Shown piece after piece: positions 49,397-60,478 of a stretch of DNA of 64,000 nt. The notes under the pieces are model-generated. The model was not told the DNA's origin and made no database searches. It was given only the letters and a program-made list of their open reading frames with translations. This stretch comes from Candidatus Algichlamydia australiensis. Lineage in GTDB: Bacteria > Chlamydiota > Chlamydiia > Chlamydiales > JAJFMI01. Made by a program: the position numbers and the translations under genes. Position 1 is the stretch's first letter. Every line of letters starts with the position of its first letter. The DNA lies in the NCBI GenBank assembly GCA_033977065.1, contig JAXCHI010000002.1, positions 96,001-160,000 of the forward strand, written 5' to 3'.

Positions 49397-50242
49397 ATGA
49401 AAAAGCTTGGGACGTCATTTTTTATCTTTTTTAGCCTATTTGGATCGATTGATCTTGGAAAGACCCCTCAACGAGCTAAATTTGTACAACAAGAGGTGTT
49501 TACAGTCTCTTTAAAAGAGCGTTATCGACTGAACAATCGTACTTTTCACGTTGTCTTAGAGGCTCCAGAAATTTCTTATACTCCTGGCTCTGTAATTGCT
49601 ATTTATCCTGAAAGCTCTTCGGAGACATTTCGGCCTCGCCATCGCTACTATTCAATTGCATCTTCATTAAAAGCAACTCCAGGAGAAATTCATTTAACAG
49701 TTGTCACATTTACAAAAGAGAAAGATGGTCATAAAACTCCTGGTCTTTGTAGCAACTTTCTTTGCAAAGAGGCAAAAATTGGACAGAAAATTAACTGCTT
49801 TATTCCAAGTAAAAAAAAGTTTTCCCCGCCAAAAAGTCCCGATTCGCCTGTTATCATGATTAGTTCAGGCGCAGGCATTGCTCCATTTCGTGGCTTTATG
49901 CAAGAGCGCAGTCAGACCCCCTCAAAGAATTGGCTTATCCATGGGGGACGCACTTACAAAGATGATTTTTACTACCAAGAGGAGTGGGAAAGACTCATAG
50001 CTTCAGATCATCTAAAAGTGACAACAGCATTTTCGCGAGATCAGGATGAAAAAATTTATGTTCAACACCGCATGCATGAGCACGCAGAAGAGATTCGCAA
50101 GTGGATTGATGAAGGCGCTGTAGTGTACATCTGTGGAAACTCAAAACAGATGGTGAAAGATGTGACAAAAACACTAGAAGAGATCTTAGGTAGCAAAGAA
50201 CAGGTAGATAGCTTGCGAAAAGCGGGCCGCCTCTTTCCTTAA
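49397..50242 (+). CDS. Truncated CysJ/ferredoxin-NADP reductase-like flavoprotein
   Basis: RYYSIASS, GLCSNFL, SGAGIAPFRGF, AFSRDQ, YICG; no flavodoxin domain. Confidence 0.8.
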   Translation: MKKLGTSFFIFFSLFGSIDLGKTPQRAKFVQQEVFTVSLKERYRLNNRTFHVVLEAPEISYTPGSVIAIYPESSSETFRPRHRYYSIASSLKATPGEIHLTVVTFTKEKDGHKTPGLCSNFLCKEAKIGQKINCFIPSKKKFSPPKSPDSPVIMISSGAGIAPFRGFMQERSQTPSKNWLIHGGRTYKDDFYYQEEWERLIASDHLKVTTAFSRDQDEKIYVQHRMHEHAEEIRKWIDEGAVVYICGNSKQMVKDVTKTLEEILGSKEQVDSLRKAGRLFP

Positions 50243-50258
50243 CCTATTCAGTGATTCT

Positions 50259-51617
50259 TTAATTGGCTTTTTTAGCTAAAGGAGAAAACCCTGAAGGAGC
50301 GCCTTTTTCAACAAGAAAATCATGTAGGCCATGGAGCTTATTCTTGTCTGCTTCTAAAACTTCGTCAGAATTAAGGTTATTTGTGATGATTCTAGTTATT
50401 GCTAGTCCCTTATCATCACGCTTATTTAGCAATTCTGAAAGTTGTTCAGGGTTTTTTTGGAACATGATATCGATAAATTGACGAAAGTTATCCAAATCTA
50501 CCAATCCATCGATTAAAACATAAATTAGAGATTGGTAAATATTGTATACACGAAAATCATAACCTAGATCAAAAAAGTTATGCAGTATGTCAGGAGGGGT
50601 TGAAACAGAAATATCTGTTATTTTAGGGAGGAGAGGTTCGATTTTATTTGGATACTCTTCAAGCAAAAGCCTCATTATTTTGAAAGTTACCTCATTAATT
50701 TTCTCTTCAAATTGATCTCGTCGGAATGAATAACAATCGGCTGGAACCCAACAGCCGTTAAACAAGAGTTCAATAAAGGTGGTTTTTTCTGAGCTCTTTG
50801 CATCAAGAGTATGAGAATTGATCTCTAATAAAAACAAAAAGGAATCGTAGTTTAATATTGTCCATTTATATAAAAAGTTGTCGAATAACTTAGGTGTACT
50901 TAACTCATTTTTGACCTTTTCTCCCGAAGAAGGCTCATTAAATTTATACAGTGTTTTCGCTTCTTCGAGATTATTAGATTCTATGAAAGCCCAGAAGAAA
51001 GAAGATGCATTTTTACGGATAAGATCGGGATGATTTTTTTTAAGAAACTGGTAGCAACTAGTTTGATTGGCACTAGTAATATTCGAAACTACCTGAGATA
51101 TGAGGGTTTCTTCAAATTTACTAGACATATTTATGTATCCAAACCCATTTCCAATTTTTAAATACCATTCGATATAGGTTGGGTCATCATTTTTAAAGCT
51201 ATCTAACGCTTTAAAAATTTTGTTTCTAGCATTGAATATTGAGAAGAAAATATTTCCAACTGTTAACACGGTTAAAAAGGAAATGAATACTTGTGATGAT
51301 TTTCCAGAAAATTCTAAATTTGTAGAGTTGCATTTTTTAAAAATAGGTCTAAAAATATTAAATAGGGCAAAATTAAAATAAATAGAGAACTTTATTCCCG
51401 CAATTATATAAGGAATAGAAAGCTTTTGCACCCTCTCTCTTTTCTCAATTGGACCTACAAGATGATCTTCATTAAGTGCTCTTCCAACTGAATCAATGAG
51501 CACATTTATTGCCACAGCGGTTACTGTAGCTCTGTTTAAATACAGAGGTGCTAATCTCTGAATACCAGATAAGGAGAAAGCAGCGCATTTAGAAAGCGCA
51601 CACGTAATATTACTCAT
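50259..51617 (-). CDS. AT-rich hypothetical protein, paralog of 51674-53059
   Basis: Shared motifs including FLVEKGAPSGF. Confidence 0.75.
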   Translation of the reverse strand: MSNITCALSKCAAFSLSGIQRLAPLYLNRATVTAVAINVLIDSVGRALNEDHLVGPIEKRERVQKLSIPYIIAGIKFSIYFNFALFNIFRPIFKKCNSTNLEFSGKSSQVFISFLTVLTVGNIFFSIFNARNKIFKALDSFKNDDPTYIEWYLKIGNGFGYINMSSKFEETLISQVVSNITSANQTSCYQFLKKNHPDLIRKNASSFFWAFIESNNLEEAKTLYKFNEPSSGEKVKNELSTPKLFDNFLYKWTILNYDSFLFLLEINSHTLDAKSSEKTTFIELLFNGCWVPADCYSFRRDQFEEKINEVTFKIMRLLLEEYPNKIEPLLPKITDISVSTPPDILHNFFDLGYDFRVYNIYQSLIYVLIDGLVDLDNFRQFIDIMFQKNPEQLSELLNKRDDKGLAITRIITNNLNSDEVLEADKNKLHGLHDFLVEKGAPSGFSPLAKKAN

Positions 51618-51673
51618 TTTATCATCTCTCGGGGTTTGTATTTTGTTTCATAGAACTAAATATTAATTTTATT

Positions 51674-53059
51674 TTAATTCATAGCAGCACTCTTAGTCGG
51701 ATTTGGGAATCCTGAAGGAGCACCTTTTTCTACTAAAAACACGTGTAGATCACTAATTAAGCCTTTTTGCTCTTCTGAAATTTGGATATGCTCATTAGTA
51801 GTAATCATTTTTACAAGAGAGAGTGTAAAATATTTGCCTTTTATTAATTCAGAAAAGCCCGAAGGATCGATTTCTTCTACTAATTCAATAAATTCTTTGA
51901 ATTTTGTGATCTTTTCTTTATCGAAGTTAGCAGTTCTAAGTATGGGACCATAAAACCCTTGGGTGTGTAAATCTATTGCTGAATTAGAGAACGTTCTATA
52001 AAGAGTTGTTTTTTGAACTCTATATCCAATATCATATAGTTTGGGAAGAATTTCTGGAGCTTCAAAAAAAGAAAAAGAATTAATCTTTGGAAAATATTCT
52101 TTTACTGATTCTGGGTAGTGTTCTATTATATGGCTTTTAGTCCTTAATCTCTCATTTTCTATTTCTTCATCTGCAATATTGGGATTCCATGTATTTACAA
52201 AAATAGATTTATTGAGAGTATGACCATGACTGTTTTTTATTTTGAATAAGTTGGGGTTAATTTTAAGTAAAAAGACGAGGGATTCATAAGTTAAATAGTC
52301 CCAAGACAAAAACTCTCCCTTGAAAATATTATTTGTTGTGAGAATATTTATTATTCCATTTTTATCGCAATACGATTTATGAAACTCAAATAACTCCCTT
52401 GCTTTTTCCAAATTTTTCGAAATTATAAAACGTTTGAAAAAGGCAGAAACATGTTCGTGGATAAATTTGGGATGGGTATCCTTTACATACTGATAAACTT
52501 CTACTTGGCCGTTTTCAATATTCAAGCAAAGATTTCTGCTTAGCAAACTATTGAAATAATCTATTTTTTTAAAAATATTAAGAGCATAGTTAGCTGTAAA
52601 AAAGGTGCCAATATAGGTTGTATTATTATTTTCAAAACTTTTTTGAAGTTTATTTTCAATATAAGACTTGATTTTTTCTCTGCCATTTATAATAGATAAA
52701 CCAATATTTCCAATAGTTATTGCCAACAACACTACACCAAACTGTTTTGTTAAACTCTTATGAATTGGATTCTCAAAACCCTCAGGTAAGTTTTCTGGAA
52801 TATTTAAAAAAACAAGGCCAACTACCGATAAATCATATAGTACAAACCTAGTAAGAAGTTGTGTTTCATTAAAAATTTTATTAAATCGACTAGGATACCC
52901 ATTTGCTCCAATGATGTGTGCTTCACCAAAAATTTTATAACCTGCACATTCAATTAAGATATTCACAGCAAGTGTTGTGATAACAGCTGCGTTACGAGAA
53001 ACCGGAGTTAAAGCTCGGTACCCAGAGCTTATAAGAGAACTACATTGAGAAAGCTGCAT
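51674..53059 (-). CDS. AT-rich hypothetical protein, paralog of 50259-51617
   Basis: Shared motifs including FLVEKGAPSGF. Confidence 0.75.
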   Translation of the reverse strand: MQLSQCSSLISSGYRALTPVSRNAAVITTLAVNILIECAGYKIFGEAHIIGANGYPSRFNKIFNETQLLTRFVLYDLSVVGLVFLNIPENLPEGFENPIHKSLTKQFGVVLLAITIGNIGLSIINGREKIKSYIENKLQKSFENNNTTYIGTFFTANYALNIFKKIDYFNSLLSRNLCLNIENGQVEVYQYVKDTHPKFIHEHVSAFFKRFIISKNLEKARELFEFHKSYCDKNGIINILTTNNIFKGEFLSWDYLTYESLVFLLKINPNLFKIKNSHGHTLNKSIFVNTWNPNIADEEIENERLRTKSHIIEHYPESVKEYFPKINSFSFFEAPEILPKLYDIGYRVQKTTLYRTFSNSAIDLHTQGFYGPILRTANFDKEKITKFKEFIELVEEIDPSGFSELIKGKYFTLSLVKMITTNEHIQISEEQKGLISDLHVFLVEKGAPSGFPNPTKSAAMN

Positions 53060-53060
53060 T

Positions 53061-53480
53061 TTAATTCCTATCTTTCAAGGTTCTATATCTCTCTCCACAA
53101 AAAAACCAAGAGTCTTCTAACTTCCAGCTAAATGGATTATACTTGTAGACGTGCTTATCCACCTCTTGGAAAAAACTTAGGTCAGCATCATGCTTTGCAT
53201 AGTGATGCACTTTCGCCGCAGCAATTGTTAAGACATTTAGAATGGCAAATGAATAAAAGAGTTGTGCTGGAAAAGATTTCCGCGGTGTATCGAATAAGTT
53301 CTTTATTCCTGCATAAACTACTACAGCGGATGTAAAGACTCCAAATTTATTAACCTGAGTTGCCTCTTTTGCTGTCCACACATTTGCTGCTACAAGAGCA
53401 ATGGTTGCTACGGCGTCTGTGCCTTGAACAAATTTGGGATCTATTTTAGGGATAAAATTTTGTACTGTTTTAATATTCAT
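53061..53480 (-). CDS. Small hydrophobic hypothetical protein
   Basis: ATGA-coupled to the upstream ORF; hydrophobic segments. Confidence 0.65.
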   Translation of the reverse strand: MNIKTVQNFIPKIDPKFVQGTDAVATIALVAANVWTAKEATQVNKFGVFTSAVVVYAGIKNLFDTPRKSFPAQLFYSFAILNVLTIAAAKVHHYAKHDADLSFFQEVDKHVYKYNPFSWKLEDSWFFCGERYRTLKDRN

Positions 53481-53869
53481 TTTTTTAATTCATCCTCGGG
53501 ATAGTAAATTGGAGAGGTATTCTCTTTATTTTCAAAAAAACTATTTATGAAAGAGGCTGTTTCCCTTCCAAGATTTTGTGAGGTTTCTATGAGTTCGTTT
53601 GATTTATTGTAAGCGTATATTAAGACGTTCATAGCAGTTAAAAGATAGAAGAGGGGATTGAGTTTGGTAAAGTGGCAAGAAGCTAGCCCCAATGCTATAT
53701 TTGGTCCTGTAAGCGATCTTTGAATCAAATAGGGATTTTCGTTTCTATACTGGTTGTCAAAGTAAATATTTGAAATAAGCGCTGCAACTTTAGTTGTAAC
53801 TTTTAATGTATGTGTTATTTGCTCTACTGTAGGAAGGGGGAGATATCTCCCTAAGACTGCAGCTGACAT
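53477..53869 (-). CDS. Small hydrophobic hypothetical protein
   Basis: AGGAG RBS; first gene of a tight four-gene run. Confidence 0.65.
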   Translation of the reverse strand: MSAAVLGRYLPLPTVEQITHTLKVTTKVAALISNIYFDNQYRNENPYLIQRSLTGPNIALGLASCHFTKLNPLFYLLTAMNVLIYAYNKSNELIETSQNLGRETASFINSFFENKENTSPIYYPEDELKK

Positions 53870-53939
53870 AGATCGGTCTCCTGATTTATAGAGAAAATTT
53901 TACCACAGATAGAGATATACTAAAATAGTATTAAAATTT

Positions 53940-56174
53940 TTATTCCTCGGGGCGCATAACAGGAAAGAAGACCACGTCGCGAATACTGGTTTCTCCTGTA
54001 AAGAGCATGGTAAGACGATCGATGCCGATACCAAAGCCGCCAGTAGGAGGCATTCCCTGGCAGATCGCTTCAAGGAACTCTTCATCGAGGGGACTCGCCT
54101 CTTCATCACCTGCTTCGCGCTTTTCATTTTGCTGGACGAGCAGTTGGCGTTGGATTTCTGGGTCGTTGAGTTCGGTGTAGGCGTTGCAAAATTCAAAGCC
54201 AAGGATGAATGTTTCAAAACGCTCAACGATCTGCTCTTCGCGCTCTTTCGGATTGCGATGCAGCTTGCAGAGAGGAGTCGTTTCAATCGGGTGATCGATG
54301 ATGTGTGTAGGCTGAATAAGATGATGTTCAACGAGTTCTTCAAAGAGCATAGCGATCAGTTTGCCGCGTGGAGCGTTGTCGATCGCTTCTTGTTCAAGAT
54401 CGGATTTGTCGGAGAGAGTCTTGCGTATCTGCTCATCTGAGAGTTTTTCAACATTGATATTGGCATACTCTTGGATGCTATCTTTCATTGTGATGCGCTT
54501 CCAAGGGCGTTGCAGGTTGATTGCGTGCTCTTTTCCCTCTTTATCTTTGCGCATGCCGATCTGTGTGGTGCCGAAAAGGGCGAGAGCGACATCTTCAAAG
54601 ATTTTTTCTACAAAGTCCATCACATCATTGTAATCCCAGTATGCCGCGTAGGCTTCGAGCATAGTGAATTCGGGATTGTGTGTGCGGTCGATACCCTCAT
54701 TGCGAAAAACTTTTGCGAGTTCATAGACGCGCTCAAAGCCTCCTACAATGAGTTTTTTGAGAGGAAGCTCAAGAGAGATGCGCAAAAACATCTCTAGGTT
54801 GAGGGCGTTGAGGTGCGAGACGAAGGGACGCGCTTCGGCACCGCCATACATGTTTTGCAGAACGGGATTTTCGACTTCCAGAAACTTTGTCTCCTCCATT
54901 GTTTTGCGAATGGTGGAGAGGATTTTTGAGCGAACTTTAAATGTCTCGATCGACTGTTTGTTGGTGATCAGGTCGAGCCAGCGCTTGCGGTAGCGTGTGC
55001 CTTTATCGGTTAGGCCGTGATGCTTGTCGGGAAGCGGAAGAAGAGATTTTGTAAGAAGAGTGACCTCTTTAGCATAGAGAGTAAGCTCGCCTTTTTGCGT
55101 GCGAAAGAGGTGGCCTGAGACGCCAATAATATCGCCAAGGTCGATCTTCTTTTCAATAAATTTTATTGCTGATTCCCCATCGGGCAGCCCGCAAACAGTT
55201 GTATGATCGCGGTTGAACATCACTTGAACGCGCTCTCCCTCTTCTTGCAGATGGGCAAAAGCGTTTTTTCCCATAGCGCGAAAGAGCATGAGACGGCCAG
55301 CGACACAGCTCTCAGGTGTGGTCCCACTTGCTGCTGCTTCGCTATCTGCTAACTCCTCTTTTTCATATTTACTATTGAGGTCGCGAATCGCGTGAGTGGG
55401 AGAGTACTTGTGCGGATAGGGATTCATTCCTGATGCGCGAATCTCAGCTAGTTTTTCTGAGCGCTTTTTAAAGTCGTCCCACCGAAAGTAATCGGGAAGG
55501 GGGTTGGCAATGATGATTTTTTCTTCAACAAAGCCGCCGCAATATTTTTCGATCAGGGTTTTAAGCTCAAGAGTAGCCTGGCGCAGCTCTTCTTTAGTCG
55601 TGCTTTCTAAACCCTCAATAACAAAGTTTGCGTTAGTTGTATTCTCAGTGACTTTACTCTTCTCACATTCACGATAGTTCCAAGAGCGACAGAGTACTTC
55701 CTCATCGTCGCGGTAGATAACCTCACCGGGATTCACATTTACCGTTTTGTCACCACCCAAAATAGTGAAGGGCTCATTACCTTCTGCAACCGTTAGTTCA
55801 ATTTTTCCCTTCACGTGATCAAGGTCATCAGAACCAGCTGCTAGGGTATGCTTTAAAGAGATAAGGTTGTAGAGATTGACAAGGGGATTGATGTCGGGAA
55901 GCTCTTTACCCTGCAAAGCGCGACGCGTGAGCGCTTCAACAGAGCTGCGATCTTTAGAACCAAAAGCGCGGTAGGCTTCACGCCAATCTTTAATCTTAGG
56001 CACCTGAGAAATTTTTTCAATTTCATAGCGCTCGCGAATCTCTTTTTCAGCAACGCGTAGCTGCTCCAAGATTTCTGCATGCGCTTTGCGATTATTGGCA
56101 CCGCGAACGGTAACAACCCCAAGCTTGGCATGGGGGAATTTCTTTTTAATTTCTGGGGCTATTTGTACGATCAT
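53940..56174 (-). CDS. lysS: Lysine--tRNA ligase (class II) with N-terminal B3/4 domain
   Basis: aa ~1-220 B3/4-like (WREAYRAFG, SSVEALTRR, INPLVNLYNLISL, GEVIYRDD, WNYRE); then RYRKRWLDL, FRNEGIDRTHNPEFT, GMPPTGGFGIGIDRL. Confidence 0.95.
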   Translation of the reverse strand: MIVQIAPEIKKKFPHAKLGVVTVRGANNRKAHAEILEQLRVAEKEIRERYEIEKISQVPKIKDWREAYRAFGSKDRSSVEALTRRALQGKELPDINPLVNLYNLISLKHTLAAGSDDLDHVKGKIELTVAEGNEPFTILGGDKTVNVNPGEVIYRDDEEVLCRSWNYRECEKSKVTENTTNANFVIEGLESTTKEELRQATLELKTLIEKYCGGFVEEKIIIANPLPDYFRWDDFKKRSEKLAEIRASGMNPYPHKYSPTHAIRDLNSKYEKEELADSEAAASGTTPESCVAGRLMLFRAMGKNAFAHLQEEGERVQVMFNRDHTTVCGLPDGESAIKFIEKKIDLGDIIGVSGHLFRTQKGELTLYAKEVTLLTKSLLPLPDKHHGLTDKGTRYRKRWLDLITNKQSIETFKVRSKILSTIRKTMEETKFLEVENPVLQNMYGGAEARPFVSHLNALNLEMFLRISLELPLKKLIVGGFERVYELAKVFRNEGIDRTHNPEFTMLEAYAAYWDYNDVMDFVEKIFEDVALALFGTTQIGMRKDKEGKEHAINLQRPWKRITMKDSIQEYANINVEKLSDEQIRKTLSDKSDLEQEAIDNAPRGKLIAMLFEELVEHHLIQPTHIIDHPIETTPLCKLHRNPKEREEQIVERFETFILGFEFCNAYTELNDPEIQRQLLVQQNEKREAGDEEASPLDEEFLEAICQGMPPTGGFGIGIDRLTMLFTGETSIRDVVFFPVMRPEE

Positions 56175-56294
56175 TTCTCAGTTCCTTCCCTCCCATTCTA
56201 GAGAGTTGCCTCTCTTTTGGCAAGGGTTCACAATTTTTCTTTACCTGTATGTAAATTTTTGATAAACTCAGGGAGTTTTTGGATTTGGAGAAAG

Positions 56295-58238
56295 ATGCAA
56301 TTACAAGATTTGCAAAAGCTCGTAGTTAAGGGAGAGTCTGAAACCCTTGAATTTAAAAAAACAACTGGACAAAGATGTGAGGCAGCGAAAACAATTTGTG
56401 CATTTTTGAATGGAGTTGGTGGGTATGTGCTTTTTGGTATTTCCGACGATGGAAAACTTATTGGACAGCAAATAACAACAAAAACTTTAGAAGATATTAC
56501 GCATGAAATACGCAAATTGGAGCCTCCTGCATTTCCAGAAATAGAAATTGTTGGGGTTCGGTCAAATAGGTCAGTGATTGTTGTGCGAGTCCCAGGAAAA
56601 TTTGGGACGTTTTCCTATTGTGGACGGCCTTATATTCGACTTGGCTCTACAACACAGATCATGCCGCGTGAAGAGTATGAAAAACGTATATTGGATAAAT
56701 TTCATGCTCATCGAAGATGGGAAAATGAGCTTGCTCCTGATTGGGTGACAATCGCGGATTTGGATGAGGAAGAGATAGAGACTACATTGCAAAATGCGAT
56801 TCAGCTTGGGAGGATGAGGCAACCTTCTAAAACAGATTCTGAGTCAATTTTAAGGGGGTTAGGTCTCATAGATCAGAATCGGTTGATCAATGCAGCTATT
56901 GCTTTATATGGGAAAAGTGAAAAATTATTTTCGTGCTTTCCTCAGCTTATGATGAAACTGGCTAGATTTCGAGGAGCTGATCGGTTGCAAGGATTTATTG
57001 ATAATCGCGAATACTGGGGGAGTGCTTTTTCTTTGTTAAAAAGAAGTGAGCAGTTTTTACTTGATCATGTTCCTATTGCAGGTAGGGTAGTTCCTGGGAA
57101 AATGATTCGTGAAGATTATCCACTATTTCCCCCACTTGCTATTCGTGAGGCGATGGCAAATGCAATTTGCCATCGGGATTATACCACTTCTGGGGGAGCG
57201 GTTGGTATTGCCATGTATGATGATCATCTTGAAGTAATCAATCCGGGAACATTTCATTTTGATATTACACCTGAAAAACTCTCTTTACCACACGAATCCA
57301 AACCTTGGAATCCCATTATTGCAAGTGTGTTATATCGGGCGGGTGTGATAGAAAAGTGGGGAACAGGAACTTTAAATATCATTGAATGGTGTGTTAAAAA
57401 CAAAAATCCAGCTCCAGAATGGAAAGTACGGTCCCAATCTGTTGTAACGACTTTTTACCCTTCATCAGTGTTTAGTGGATACAAAAAACCCGAGTTGAGG
57501 CCCGAGTCATTAGAGGCAGAGGTGGTAAAATTGCTTCAAAAAGGAGCTCTCTCAAAGTCTGAAATAGCCCAATCTTTAGGGCATAAAAAGATATCTGGTG
57601 CATTGAAGAAAACACTCGATCAGCTGCTTAAGAAAAAAGAGATTTTTTATACAATCCCCGAAAAACCAAATAGTAAATTTCAGAAATATAAAAGTCCTGA
57701 ATCGGGGCCCGAGTTGAGGCCCGAGTTGAGGCCCGAGTTGAGGCCCGAGTTGAGGCCCGAGTCATTAGAGACTGAGGTGGTAAAGTTGCTTCAAAAAGGA
57801 GCTCTCTCAAAGTCTGAAATAGCCCAATCTTTAGGGCATAAAAAGATATCTGGTGCATTGAAGAAAACACTCGATCAGCTGCTTAAGAAAAAAGAGATTT
57901 TTTACACAATTCCTGAGAAACCAAATAGTAGACTTCAAAAATACAAAAGGCCCGAGTCGAGGCCCGAGTTGAGGCCCGAGTCGAGGCCCGAGTCGAGGCC
58001 TGAGTCGAGGCCTGAGTCGAGGCCTGAGTCAAGGCCTGAGTCACTCGAAATGGCTATATTAAAATTACTAGGAGAGAAGCCTCGATCAAAATCTGAAATT
58101 GCTGCTGCTTTAGGTCACAAGCACGTTTCTGGGGGGCTGAAAAAATTGCTTCTTCTTCTGTTGCAACAAGGCAAAATTGCTTACACGATTCCTGAAAAGC
58201 CAAATAGTAGGTTGCAAAAATACCGATTAGAAAATTAA
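56295..58238 (+). CDS. AlbA_2/Schlafen-domain protein with RecG-C/HATPase-like region and three C-terminal HTH repeats
   Basis: GESETLEFK, CAFLNGVGG..LFGISDDG; REAMANAICHRDY, NPG, WNPIIA, EKWGTG; three copies of SKSEIA..LGHK...YTIPEKPNS..QKY; GGAG before ATG at 56295. Confidence 0.85.
   Translation: MQLQDLQKLVVKGESETLEFKKTTGQRCEAAKTICAFLNGVGGYVLFGISDDGKLIGQQITTKTLEDITHEIRKLEPPAFPEIEIVGVRSNRSVIVVRVPGKFGTFSYCGRPYIRLGSTTQIMPREEYEKRILDKFHAHRRWENELAPDWVTIADLDEEEIETTLQNAIQLGRMRQPSKTDSESILRGLGLIDQNRLINAAIALYGKSEKLFSCFPQLMMKLARFRGADRLQGFIDNREYWGSAFSLLKRSEQFLLDHVPIAGRVVPGKMIREDYPLFPPLAIREAMANAICHRDYTTSGGAVGIAMYDDHLEVINPGTFHFDITPEKLSLPHESKPWNPIIASVLYRAGVIEKWGTGTLNIIEWCVKNKNPAPEWKVRSQSVVTTFYPSSVFSGYKKPELRPESLEAEVVKLLQKGALSKSEIAQSLGHKKISGALKKTLDQLLKKKEIFYTIPEKPNSKFQKYKSPESGPELRPELRPELRPELRPESLETEVVKLLQKGALSKSEIAQSLGHKKISGALKKTLDQLLKKKEIFYTIPEKPNSRLQKYKRPESRPELRPESRPESRPESRPESRPESRPESLEMAILKLLGEKPRSKSEIAAALGHKHVSGGLKKLLLLLLQQGKIAYTIPEKPNSRLQKYRLEN
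57693..57764 (+). repeat. 12-bp coding tandem repeat x6 (RPEL/RPES)
   Basis: AGGCCCGAGTTG-type units. Confidence 0.9.
57948..58043 (+). repeat. 12-bp coding tandem repeat x8 (RPES)
   Basis: AGGCC(C/T)GAGTC(G/A)-type units. Confidence 0.9.
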
Positions 58239-58242
58239 TCGT

Positions 58243-60478
58243 TCAAAAGTGGGTCGACTGTGGGTCGATGTCAATTGTGTAGCGCGTCTCTTTTGGCGTT
58301 TTCAGTTTTGTTTGCAGGTTGATCAGGGCGTTGGAAAGAGTAAATCCTTTTTTAGGTCCTTTGATTAGGAATTGAAAGCGGTAGCGGTCGCGGATTTTGG
58401 CGTAGCCACAGGGGACGACAGGCAATATTTCGTAAGTAGGCGGTAGGAGTTTAAGGAGGATGTCGCGCGCATCTTTGGCAAAGCTCATTGTTGCACCATC
58501 TTTTAGTCCGGAGAAGATCAGCCGGGCGATTTGTGTGAACGGGGGATAGTGAAAGAGTTTGCGCTCTTCGATTTCTTGTGTATAAAAATTTTCATAATCA
58601 TCTTTGGCAGCGAGTTGAATGAGCGGATGTGTGGGCATGCGACTTTGGATGATCACTTCTCCTTCAAGTAGGCTGCGCCCGGAGCGGCCAGCGACTTGGG
58701 TGACAAGTTGAAAAAGGTTTTCACTAGAGCGAAAGTCGGGAATGTTCATGGCACCATCGGAGTTGAGGACACCGACAAGGGTAACAGCGGGAAAATGGAG
58801 GCCTTTGGCGATCATTTGGGTGCCGATGAGCACGTCGGCTTTTCCAGAACGAAACTGTTTGAAGAGTTCATCGTGGCTTCCTTTATGGCGGGTTGTATCC
58901 GCATCCATGCGCAGAGTGCGTATTTCAGGAAAGATGGCCTTGAGGGTGCGTTCCACTTGTTCTGTTCCGGCGCCGCGGTAGTTGAGGGTTTCAGCTGCGC
59001 ATTTGGGGCATTTGCGTGGGGGAGGATTGAGGGTGTAATCGCAGAGGTGGCAGGTAAGCAAGTTTTCTTTTTTGTGAAAAGTAAGGGAGAGTTCGCAGTG
59101 GGGGCATTTGATGCTCTCATTGCACTCGGAGCAGAGCAAAAAAGAGTTATAGCCGCGGCGGTTAAGAAAAAGCAAACTCTGCTCGCCAAGTGCAGTGCGT
59201 TTTTCAATTGCTGCAAGAAGAGGGGCAGAGAGCAGAGGGATGCGTTTCTCTTTTTCTGCTTCGCGCATCAAATCTACGAGCGTGATTTTGGGGCGGCGCG
59301 CGTTTTTAGGGCGGTTTTTCAAAATACTTAATTTGTATTTGCCGTTTTTCGCATTGGTGTAACTCTCTAAGCTTGGTGTAGCAGAGCCAAGGAGGCAGAC
59401 GGCGTTTTCGAGTTTTGCACGCATGATTGCGACATCACGACCGTTGTAGCAGGGCATTTCATCTGTCTGTTTGTAGGAGTTGTCGTGCTCTTCATCGACG
59501 ATAATGAGGCCAAGATTGGGTAGGGGGGGAGAAGAGTGCCGAGCGGGCACCGACGACAATGGGAATTTCACCGCGCGCAATGCGTACCCAACTATCATAG
59601 CGCTCTCCAAAGGAGAGACGGTGGTGGAGTATTGCAATTTTTTCTTGAAAACGACTTTTGAGGCGCTCTGCTGTTTGGGTAGTGAGGGCAATTTCAGGAA
59701 CAAGCATGAGTACAGAGCGTCCCAGTTGCATCGTTTCGGCCATTGCTTGAAGGTAGACTTCAGTTTTTCCTGAACCGGTAATACCGTGCAGGAGATGGGT
59801 GGAAAAGTTTTTTGATTTGATGTCTGCAAGTAGGCAGTCAAGTGCGCTTTGTTGCTGGCTTGAGAGGGTTTTTGGCTTCGTGGGAAAGTAGGGGAATTCA
59901 TCAAAGGGCGTGCGGTCGACTTCAACCTCGCGAATCTCAATCACTCCCTGCTTTTCAAGGGTCTCTACAGGACTTATTGAGCCTTTTGTCTGCTGCAAAA
60001 GCTCTGAAAGAAAGAGTCCTTTTGGTTTTTTTAACAGGGTTTCTAAAACTTTTGCTTGTGCGGGCTTTTTTCTTTGTAGTTCTTTGCAGAGAGCCGTGAG
60101 CTCAGCGAGGGGTTTTTTGCGGCTAATGCGTTTTTGCATTTTTGCTTTTGCTTTGCCGCGCATGGCGGAGGGCAAAAATAGTTTGAGTACGCGCCGCATC
60201 GGTGTAGCGTAGTAGTGGCTGATCCATTCAGCGAGCTGAAAGAGTTCATCTGTGAGTTTGCCCTCTTCATCTAAAATTTCAAGAGCGGTCTGCAACTTGG
60301 CAAAAGCGCTCTTTTTTTTAATTTCGATGATCGTGCCTTTGACTTTTCGCCCGCGAATCGTGACAAGTACGCGCAGGCCGGGGCGCAAATTTTCCCACTC
60401 GTTTGGAGCAAGGTAGTCGAGTGGCCTGTCGAGGGCTTCGTCGAGTTGAACGTTTAGGATTGTCGTAGTCTTTCCCAA
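58243..60478 (-). CDS. priA: Primosomal protein N' (PriA), split by a 1-nt frameshift at a G7 run (59523-59529)
   Basis: GITGSGKTEVY and VLMLVPEIAL in one frame; IIVDEEHD, GSATPSLES, Cys clusters, GTQMIAKG, QVAGRSGR in another. Confidence 0.9.

Follow-up and report, generated by a model that had tools for sequence, protein, structure and literature searches.

In a 64,000-nucleotide stretch of the genome of Candidatus Algichlamydia australiensis (assembly GCA_033977065.1, contig JAXCHI010000002.1, positions 96,001 to 160,000; the whole of this stretch is called the window below), a gene for a class II lysyl-tRNA synthetase (LysRS) encodes, ahead of the enzyme and in the same reading frame, a domain of the CtdA type. 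CtdA is known as a free-standing B3/4 protein that deacylates canavanyl-tRNA-Arg (PMC10018355, PMC12449066). According to our analysis the fusion is real, well conserved and, as far as we searched, undescribed, and comparison of the sequences suggests that lysine decoding is probably proofread by it after transfer to the tRNA. With somewhat more than even confidence we propose that the domain would serve as a tethered post-transfer editing module, which clears a cationic lysine look-alike from tRNA-Lys. The review list of PMC11415595 counts LysRS as a synthetase that lacks a dedicated domain for post-transfer editing, and this holds for the bacterial class II enzyme of the LysS/LysU type, whereas the window protein carries an editing-type one.

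The preliminary description of this DNA had claimed one unbroken frame of 744 residues at 53940..56174, with about 220 residues similar to B3/4 proteins in front of a complete class II LysRS. A single unbroken open reading frame with an ATG start is indeed found there on the minus strand, and Pfam and NCBIfam models divide it into a domain of about 217 residues, a linker of about 15 and the synthetase. Its parts, with the evidence for each, are as follows.

53940..56174, minus strand: whole gene, a 744-residue fusion of CtdA-type domain, linker and class II LysRS, stop codon included (reading frame, Pfam, NCBIfam)
55524..56174, minus strand: domain assigned to the CtdA type of B3/4 aminoacyl-tRNA deacylases, residues 1-217 (Pfam, PDB sequence search, AlphaFold2 (AF2) model, Foldseek)
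55566-55964, minus strand: Pfam B3_4 core, residues 71-203 (E 1.5e-23)
55620..55868, minus strand: codons of the predicted aminoacyl pocket, N103, G114, D116, C162, E169 and V185 (residue mapping onto S. enterica CtdA)
55479..55523, minus strand: short linker, residues 218-232, 15 amino acids (drop of the AF2 confidence, pLDDT)
53940..55478, minus strand: complete class II lysyl-tRNA synthetase body, residues 233-744 (Pfam, NCBIfam)
55053-55304, minus strand: oligonucleotide/oligosaccharide-binding (OB) anticodon-binding domain of the LysRS body, residues 291-374 (Pfam tRNA_anti-codon)
53955-55004, minus strand: class II catalytic domain of the LysRS body, residues 391-740 (Pfam tRNA-synt_2)
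56195..56223, minus strand: promoter-like sigma-70 site (TTGCCA-17-TAGAAT, a consensus match only)

The B3_4 match scores 83.7 bits over a cut-off of 29.3, and the catalytic domain is matched by tRNA-synt_2 with an E value of 9.5e-86. The synthetase body passes both the equivalog and the subfamily cut-offs of NCBIfam over residues 234/235-743 (PRK00484, 646 bits with a cut-off of 468; TIGR00499, 563.2 bits with a cut-off of 427.6), and its class II motifs are invariant in all 37 fused proteins of a MAFFT alignment that holds N- and C-terminal domains in separate columns and was used for the invariant LysRS columns only. Homologues of the fusion protein can be aligned starting with residue 1 in BLAST searches of the two halves, and the promoter-like site (read from 56223 to 56195, 10 of 12 consensus positions matched) lies directly upstream of the ATG. 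LysX, a known LysRS fusion in which MprF is the partner, is unrelated (NF002821, 501 bits where 742 are needed).

The N-terminal part is, judging from the predicted structure and the sequence matches, a B3/4 domain of the type known from free-standing CtdA, with the helical insert of that type, rather than one copied from the editing domain of phenylalanyl-tRNA synthetase (PheRS), because the PDB search, the AF2 model and the Foldseek ranking all favour CtdA. A sequence search of the entire PDB with the domain returned only two matches and both of them are CtdA, namely 9f7e of P. canavaninivorans (E 2.2e-23) and 9mkl of S. enterica (E 6.4e-21). The AF2 model, built on 81 sequences, has a predicted local distance difference test score (pLDDT) of 96.4 and a predicted template-modelling (TM) score of 0.91, and its confidence drops only over linker residues 221-232 (pLDDT 79, then 52). 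Foldseek places it closest to 9mkl_A (TM 0.86/0.88) and 9f7e_A (TM 0.87/0.88), with a root-mean-square deviation of about 2.5 over about 229 columns in superposition on CtdA, versus query-normalised TM scores of only 0.53-0.60 for PheRS beta chains. The earlier assignment to the B3/4 family in the vicinity of free-standing CtdA is in agreement with these values (E 2e-23, TM 0.86-0.88).

The window domain and CtdA (PMC10018355, PMC12449066) have the same fold over about 230 residues, the CtdA-specific helical insert among them, at 25-29% identity in the structural alignment. CtdA is free-standing; the window domain is instead joined covalently to LysRS, has no association with arginyl-tRNA synthetase (ArgRS) and belongs to a chlamydial clade that is absent from the CtdA papers (term searches of their main texts). 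The B3/4 domain of PheRS beta has a homologous fold and the same catalytic-site Asn (Pfam B3_4; PMC12449066) and is a precedent for this fold as a synthetase's own post-transfer editing site, but it is only 10-17% identical to the window domain and differs in inserts and pocket, where its G318/H265 logic is reversed relative to CtdA (PMC12449066). It is also internal and docked in a heterotetramer, whereas domains of the window type are terminal add-ons found at either end.

In S. enterica numbering the CtdA aminoacyl pocket consists of N105, G116, E118, C166, Q173 and I189, and mutations show that N105, G116, C166 and Q173 matter (PMC12449066). Mapped from the PDB alignment (chain numbering +2), the corresponding residues of the window domain are N103, G114, D116, C162, E169 and V185; the first, second and fourth are identical and the remaining three are conservative substitutions, so that both proteins share the pattern N/G/acid/C/acid-or-amide/aliphatic. 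The cysteine is the one strictly conserved in the CtdA-1 clade, and a Glu at the Q173 position occurs, and is reportedly tolerated, in C. perfringens CtdA (PMC12449066). By manual reading of the 81-sequence family alignment the window domain retains 15 of 16 family-conserved residues, including E151, the sole invariant column of that alignment; A112 stands where most members have Pro.

The junction between domain and synthetase is genuine. Contigs of two sequencing runs cross it without stop, frameshift or variant (0 differences, 0 indels), one of them, X1, 19205 nt long and covering 53900-56250, and the other, X2, 2927 nt long at a word depth of 639 and covering 54181-56250; both runs may be the window's own source sample and are taken as consistency, not as independent support. 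Among 41 genomes of the same order a collinear fusion is present in four (the own genome, one of the same genus, one of the same family and one of another family), the LysRS match begins at query residue 201-234 in unfused frames of 514-601 residues in 36, and one genome gave no match at the LysRS level. A wider comparison took in 400 scored genomes of the order; a relative of the domain is present in 57 of them, and in 32 of the 57 it lies within a frame of at least 684 residues, spread over four families (f1 3, f28 4, f8 8, f44 17). All five long frames that were fetched contain the LysRS body, and G001, G002 and G029 were also matched collinearly in the 41-genome comparison. The fusion is present in single-contig genomes and in many independent assemblies as well.

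Relatives of the fusion show two geometries. The first homologue set consists of 40 proteins of the length class searched that match the domain at E <=1e-5. Of these, 36 combine B3_4 with class II LysRS; by BLAST of both halves the domain is N-terminal in 16 relatives (17 with the query) and C-terminal in 20. Chlamydial linkers measure 15-34 residues in N-fusions (15 in the window) and 5-13 in C-fusions, and that of the Babeliales protein P0095 measures 50. The names of close relatives are Simkaniaceae, Rhabdochlamydiaceae, Parachlamydiales, Chlamydiae and Ca. Anoxychlamydiales. Free-standing orthologues of 233-265 residues and 50-52% identity (L018, L019, L020) occur in two other chlamydial genomes, and lysS was not found in the fetched stretches around them. 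One C-fused LysRS, P0035 (733 aa), has the halves of the domain swapped, query residues 91-224 lying at 505-638 and 5-87 at 652-733, so that one must assume a circular permutation or else a misassembly.

Domains of this family are also attached to other synthetases. When 1.84 billion representatives were searched exhaustively with HMMER, 3080 matches at E <=0.001 were obtained, and all 40 proteins longer than 300 residues among the best 150 of them were classified. Half of these, 20, are ArgRS fusions (the domain is N-terminal in every case and doubled in tandem in one, and three of the proteins are fragments; one is named Ca. Shapirobacteria), four and one fragment are fusions to class II LysRS, two to class I LysRS (one N- and one C-terminal), and five to a catalytic domain of the TyrRS/TrpRS type, three of which have TyrRS C-terminal domains and a fourth is named TyrRS by its source. 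The remainder are two GNAT proteins, one amidase, four with B3_4 only and one repeat protein that is a spurious match. For class I LysRS a third fusion, P0040, comes from the first homologue set, so that in this class P0066 is N-fused and P0051 and P0040 are C-fused. Elsewhere in the domain tree, class II LysRS fusions are represented by P0095 (named Candidatus Babeliales), P0072 and P0105. The survey of B3_4-synthetase architectures, which had been suggested along with the preliminary description, has yielded 36 fusions of the chlamydial class II type and others with class II LysRS, class I LysRS, ArgRS and TyrRS. Fusions to the latter three have in common with the chlamydial protein the domain family, short linkers and a partner for which PMC11415595, in the part cited, lists no editing domain; they differ from it in the partner enzyme, in partner-specific pockets and in their separate places in the domain tree, and within the literature searched none of them has been characterised.

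In a domain tree of 192 rows (quick search) the chlamydial LysRS-fused domains together with six short rows labelled free (P0071 among these is a probable fragment) make up a single 42-row clade with a support of 89 in the Shimodaira-Hasegawa-like approximate likelihood ratio test (SH-aLRT), and the other LysRS fusions are placed outside of it. Strongly supported branches force at least four changes of state for N-fused class II LysRS, at least three for C-fused class II, at least three for class I, at least seven for ArgRS and at least two for TyrRS, a distribution suggesting that CtdA-type domains joined other synthetases independently of the chlamydial LysRS.

A tree of the LysRS body (47 rows, including eight unfused chlamydial enzymes) recovers sub-clades matching those of the domain tree, and since the two trees agree in this way it appears that body and domain diverged jointly and that the fusion was lost or split in several lineages; enzymes without the fusion fall between fused ones in the tree. 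The 19 C-fused proteins of this tree are sister to the N-fused pair P0019/P0027, a grouping with bootstrap values of 98/94 for the domain and 100/100 for domain plus body in careful searches, the concatenated tree being well resolved. A single N-fused group, named after seeing the tree, was not rejected by the approximately unbiased (AU) test (p 0.081 and 0.157). One switch of end would suffice on these trees; an origin of the C-fused form from within the N-fused ones was considered, but the AU result leaves either direction.

The predicted pocket varies with the partner enzyme. Its Asn and Gly are near-invariant across all fused groups, and the chlamydial fusions keep N-G-D-C-E in 31 of 36 cases. 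At the E118 position Glu stands in all 21 ArgRS-fusion rows, Asp in 33 of the 36 chlamydial LysRS fusions and in two of the three class I LysRS fusions, and His in four of the five TyrRS fusions. The C166 position is Cys in both Lys and Arg fusions and Thr in four of five Tyr fusions, and two further columns separate the chlamydial Lys fusions from the Arg fusions (Q159, E vs G; Q172, K vs R). Such partner dependence is the pattern expected for a live active site fitted to the mischarging of each synthetase, and the differences from ArgRS-fused domains suggest a specificity other than for canavanyl-tRNA-Arg. Compared with CtdA itself, with E118 and Q173, the window domain has Asp and Glu at these places, and its substrate is probably a different one.

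From these comparisons we infer a hydrolytic activity, tRNA-Lys as its carrier and the nature of the amino acid, and the following cycle can be suggested. The LysRS body would charge tRNA-Lys and sometimes transfer to it a near-cognate cationic amino acid, a look-alike of lysine or arginine such as thia-, oxa- or hydroxy-lysine, ornithine, a shorter diamino acid, homoarginine or arginine. The tethered domain would capture the 3' end of the mischarged tRNA-Lys and hydrolyse the ester in its CtdA-like pocket, with Asn103 near the ester, Gly114 and Val185 setting the size of the pocket, Cys162 lining the side chain and the acidic Asp116 and Glu169 facing its positive end. With its CtdA-like Cys and these two acidic residues such a pocket may accommodate a long basic side chain. 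Correctly charged Lys-tRNA-Lys would be spared because it fits less well and is protected by EF-Tu and the synthetase, in the way CtdA is held off cognate Arg-tRNA-Arg by synthetase and EF-Tu (PMC12449066). Since the domain sits at either end and on short linkers of variable length, it is likelier to act as a trans-type editor at high local concentration than through a fixed channel along which the CCA end is shuttled. The preliminary description had suggested proofreading in cis of tRNA-Lys that carries a lysine analogue met in the host: the link to tRNA-Lys gains strong comparative support from the recurrent independent fusions to both LysRS classes, from co-divergence and from the partner-tuned pocket, but a fixed cis channel fits the either-end placement and the short variable linkers less well than a tethered, trans-like editor does.

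A number of observations weigh against this proposal, and the first group of them concerns the nearest relatives. Five of the 36 chlamydial fusions depart from the pocket pattern, and among the five are the window protein's three nearest relatives, whose pockets read N-D-N-C-K-V (P0001), N-G-D-S-E-V (P0002) and H-G-V-R-E-I (P0003), and because the pocket erodes there, the function of the domain appears not to be indispensable in the window's own sub-clade. In the congener (G001, whose protein is P0001, on four contigs) residues 132-149 are absent and G150K and E151D are found in addition; its catalysis has probably been lost while the gene remains fused, a natural catalytic knock-out as far as sequence can tell. 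The same orthologue (L007, G001:C35) also carries G114D, D116N and E169K, the remaining domain being about 77-80% identical and in frame. Since 343 of the 400 genomes of the order have no match to the domain and 36 of the 41 compared have an unfused LysRS, the domain is dispensable for chlamydial life in general. In comparison with the congener, the ratio of nonsynonymous to synonymous substitution rates (dN/dS) amounts to 0.093 in the domain (202 codons) and 0.034 in the body (509 codons), so the domain changes about 2.7 times faster by this measure, with dS of about 1.8 near saturation; it nevertheless appears still constrained overall between the two species.

One can therefore ask whether the domain of this sub-clade is no longer, or only marginally, a hydrolase, and is either a relic or a re-used structural, dimerising or tRNA-binding appendage of LysRS. 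The deviation of each of the three nearest relatives at one pocket position or more, and the 18 residues missing from the congener, with the invariant Gly-Glu among the altered positions and the rest in frame, speak for it. Class II LysRS is a dimer. CtdA is a dimer as well (PMC12449066), and a structural role is conceivable on these grounds. On the other side, the window's own copy is intact, unlike those of its nearest relatives, with its six pocket positions in allowed states and nearly all of the family-conserved residues in place; the pocket is kept in most chlamydial fusions; the dN/dS of the domain is low; and a C-to-S change of the type seen in P0002 retained activity in CtdA (PMC12449066). 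We regard this reading of the sub-clade, as a relic or a re-used appendage, as unlikely.

The second group of unfavourable observations concerns the substrate. The window pocket is very close to those of canavanyl-tRNA-Arg deacylases, for which reason a canavanyl or arginyl substrate, and not a lysine analogue, could still be the one. At the E118 position Glu replaces Asp in three of the four class II LysRS rows from outside the Chlamydiae, hence Asp there seems to be no universal mark of lysine partners. It is conceivable that the domain keeps the canonical job of CtdA and acts in trans on canavanyl-tRNA-Arg, or on tRNA-Arg mischarged in another way, while LysRS is no more than its carrier and provides, for instance, co-expression or a general affinity for tRNA. 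The nearly CtdA-1 pocket, with the strictly conserved Cys and the C. perfringens-type Glu (PMC12449066), and the loose tether at either end agree with this, and in the own genome B3_4 matches are limited to PheT and the fusion gene, so neither a free CtdA-like gene nor an ArgRS fusion was found there. However, 20 other proteins carry the domain on ArgRS itself, which indicates that lineages in need of an ArgRS editor place it there; both unrelated LysRS classes acquired it repeatedly; and the chlamydial LysRS fusions differ from the 21 ArgRS rows by Asp against Glu at E118 and in two more columns. Service to tRNA-Arg is in our opinion quite improbable, a shade more so than loss of activity.

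A brake on the output of LysRS, in which the domain would hydrolyse correct Lys-tRNA-Lys, another lysyl-ester or lysyl-adenylate, might be derived from the weak activity of CtdA on cognate Arg-tRNA-Arg at high enzyme concentration (PMC12449066) and from the rise of local concentration by tethering. It would be costly, though, to run a futile cycle on the only LysRS available, CtdA is reportedly kept from the cognate product by synthetase and EF-Tu (PMC12449066) and the neighbouring genes give no regulatory hint, and we find such a brake very improbable. Finally, an assembly or gene-calling artefact that merged two adjacent genes can practically be dismissed, despite the metagenome-type assembly of the window and the possible common source of the two matching runs, because 36 database proteins share the fusion and 32 of 400 genomes of the order have the domain in a frame of at least 684 residues, beside the open frame without stop, the deep contigs without indel or variant and the collinear fusions of independent and single-contig assemblies.

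Turning back to the proposal of a tethered editor, we may extend it, tentatively and with less than even confidence, to a joint reading of the whole family: CtdA-type domains could be a modular plug-in proofreading unit, added many times and independently to synthetases considered free of editing domains (class II and class I LysRS, ArgRS and TyrRS), of which the chlamydial LysRS version persisted while at least four families radiated, moved between the ends of the enzyme and also exists free-standing. If this modular reading is true, a specific natural lysine antimetabolite would be a danger met again and again within the cells of protist or animal hosts, and lysine decoding would have a post-transfer editing step that is missing from textbooks. 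One of the independent fusions is named Babeliales, another lineage of protist endosymbionts.

Within the literature searched no published description of the domain-LysRS architecture was found, and the main texts of papers on CtdA or on deacylase-guided discovery, searched by term, do not mention a synthetase fusion. The supplement of PMC12449066 has, among CtdA homologues, one uncommented row "Lysyl-tRNA synthetase, class 2" (Alteribacillus persepolensis), known by name only, and in the part of its text supplement covered here chlamydial CtdA rows are absent. What is new here is that a class II LysRS of Chlamydiae carries the domain, that a single co-diverging clade contains both geometries, that orthologues of the domain exist in free-standing form and that the pocket erodes among the nearest relatives. 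Loss of editing has been seen mainly in intracellular microbes (PMC11415595), whereas here an obligate intracellular lineage has gained an editing-type module and retained it on the one LysRS that it has. Provided that this module is active, it would be a new proofreading step on the map of genetic-code fidelity and a handle for finding a natural lysine look-alike in host cells through deacylase-guided antimetabolite discovery, and the partner-tuned Lys, Arg and Tyr variants would be of use for working out CtdA pocket specificity, with benefit to genetic-code engineering. With the domain relocated between ends within one clade, nature also offers a clean test of whether editing depends on a fixed geometry.

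The own genome (G000; 1.8 Mb, 7 contigs, 93.4% complete) contains the fusion as the only LysRS found, which at this completeness has the housekeeping role. Neither a second class II LysRS nor a class I LysRS (PF01921) was found in it; the sole other LysRS-like gene is EpmA (317.5 bits, cut-off 286.9), and the only B3_4 domain besides the fusion is that of PheT. As lysA (TIGR01048) was not found in this 93.4%-complete genome either, lysine is probably imported from the host.

Genes next to the free-standing chlamydial copies deserve to be described. The orthologue at L018 3066-5706 (minus strand, G241:C91; 233 aa, 50% identity) abuts two genes of the same strand, one of the OCD/mu-crystallin family (EutC-like) and one for a threonine/serine-dehydratase-like pyridoxal phosphate (PLP) enzyme (EutB/BhcB-like), with named matches below cut-off; the two make a pair of the dehydratase and imine-reductase type. 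Their assignment as makers of 2,3-diaminopropionate (SbnA/SbnB) was rejected, the SbnB model scoring 103.8 bits with a cut-off of 326.9 and the PLP enzyme resembling threonine/serine dehydratase or EutB rather than SbnA. The orthologue at L020 2401-4834 (plus strand, G258:C56; a 265-residue frame) lies downstream of a YheO-like regulator (PAS_6 and HTH_22) and of a PLP enzyme of aminotransferase fold, whose best named matches, below cut-off, are GntC (277 vs 415) and VioD (221 vs 391), by model name a gamma-hydroxy-arginine cyclodehydratase and a capreomycidine synthase. The neighbours of the free copies hint at hydroxylated or cyclisable basic amino acids as the class of substrate.

Further combinations of the domain were met. 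P0042 (1124 aa) is an ArgRS with two tandem CtdA-type domains, and P0157 (825 aa), of the TyrRS/TrpRS type, has a YbaK-type tRNA_edit domain and a CtdA-type domain, both N-terminal. CtdA-type domains also stand at either end of GNAT acetyltransferases (P0039, P0087, P0174) and on an amidase (P0086); because a canavanine-selective GNAT has been published (PMC10416765), deacylation in the GNAT fusions may be coupled to detoxification of the released analogue. A more distant chlamydial homologue, at L026 2538-3701 (minus strand, G221:C41), is fused to ankyrin repeats in a frame of 388 residues.

The neighbours of the fusion gene in the window give no hint on its function or regulation. Directly downstream of lysS lies a block of low GC content (50001-54000, 0.33-0.34 vs 0.40-0.49 elsewhere) with four minus-strand open reading frames of 130, 139, 461 and 452 residues, for which no Pfam match was found. 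The divergent upstream gene (56217-58238, plus strand) encodes 673 residues with Schlafen AlbA_2 and HATPase_c_4 domains, and its protein shows three Fic-like_C winged-helix repeats and runs of PE(L/S)RPE repeats. Beyond it, priA (58243-60478, minus strand) is present as two overlapping open reading frames, 59492-60478 with the 3'BD and DEAD domains and 58243-59940 with zinc ribbon, Helicase_C and PriA_C, a split in which a frameshift or a sequencing error is possible.

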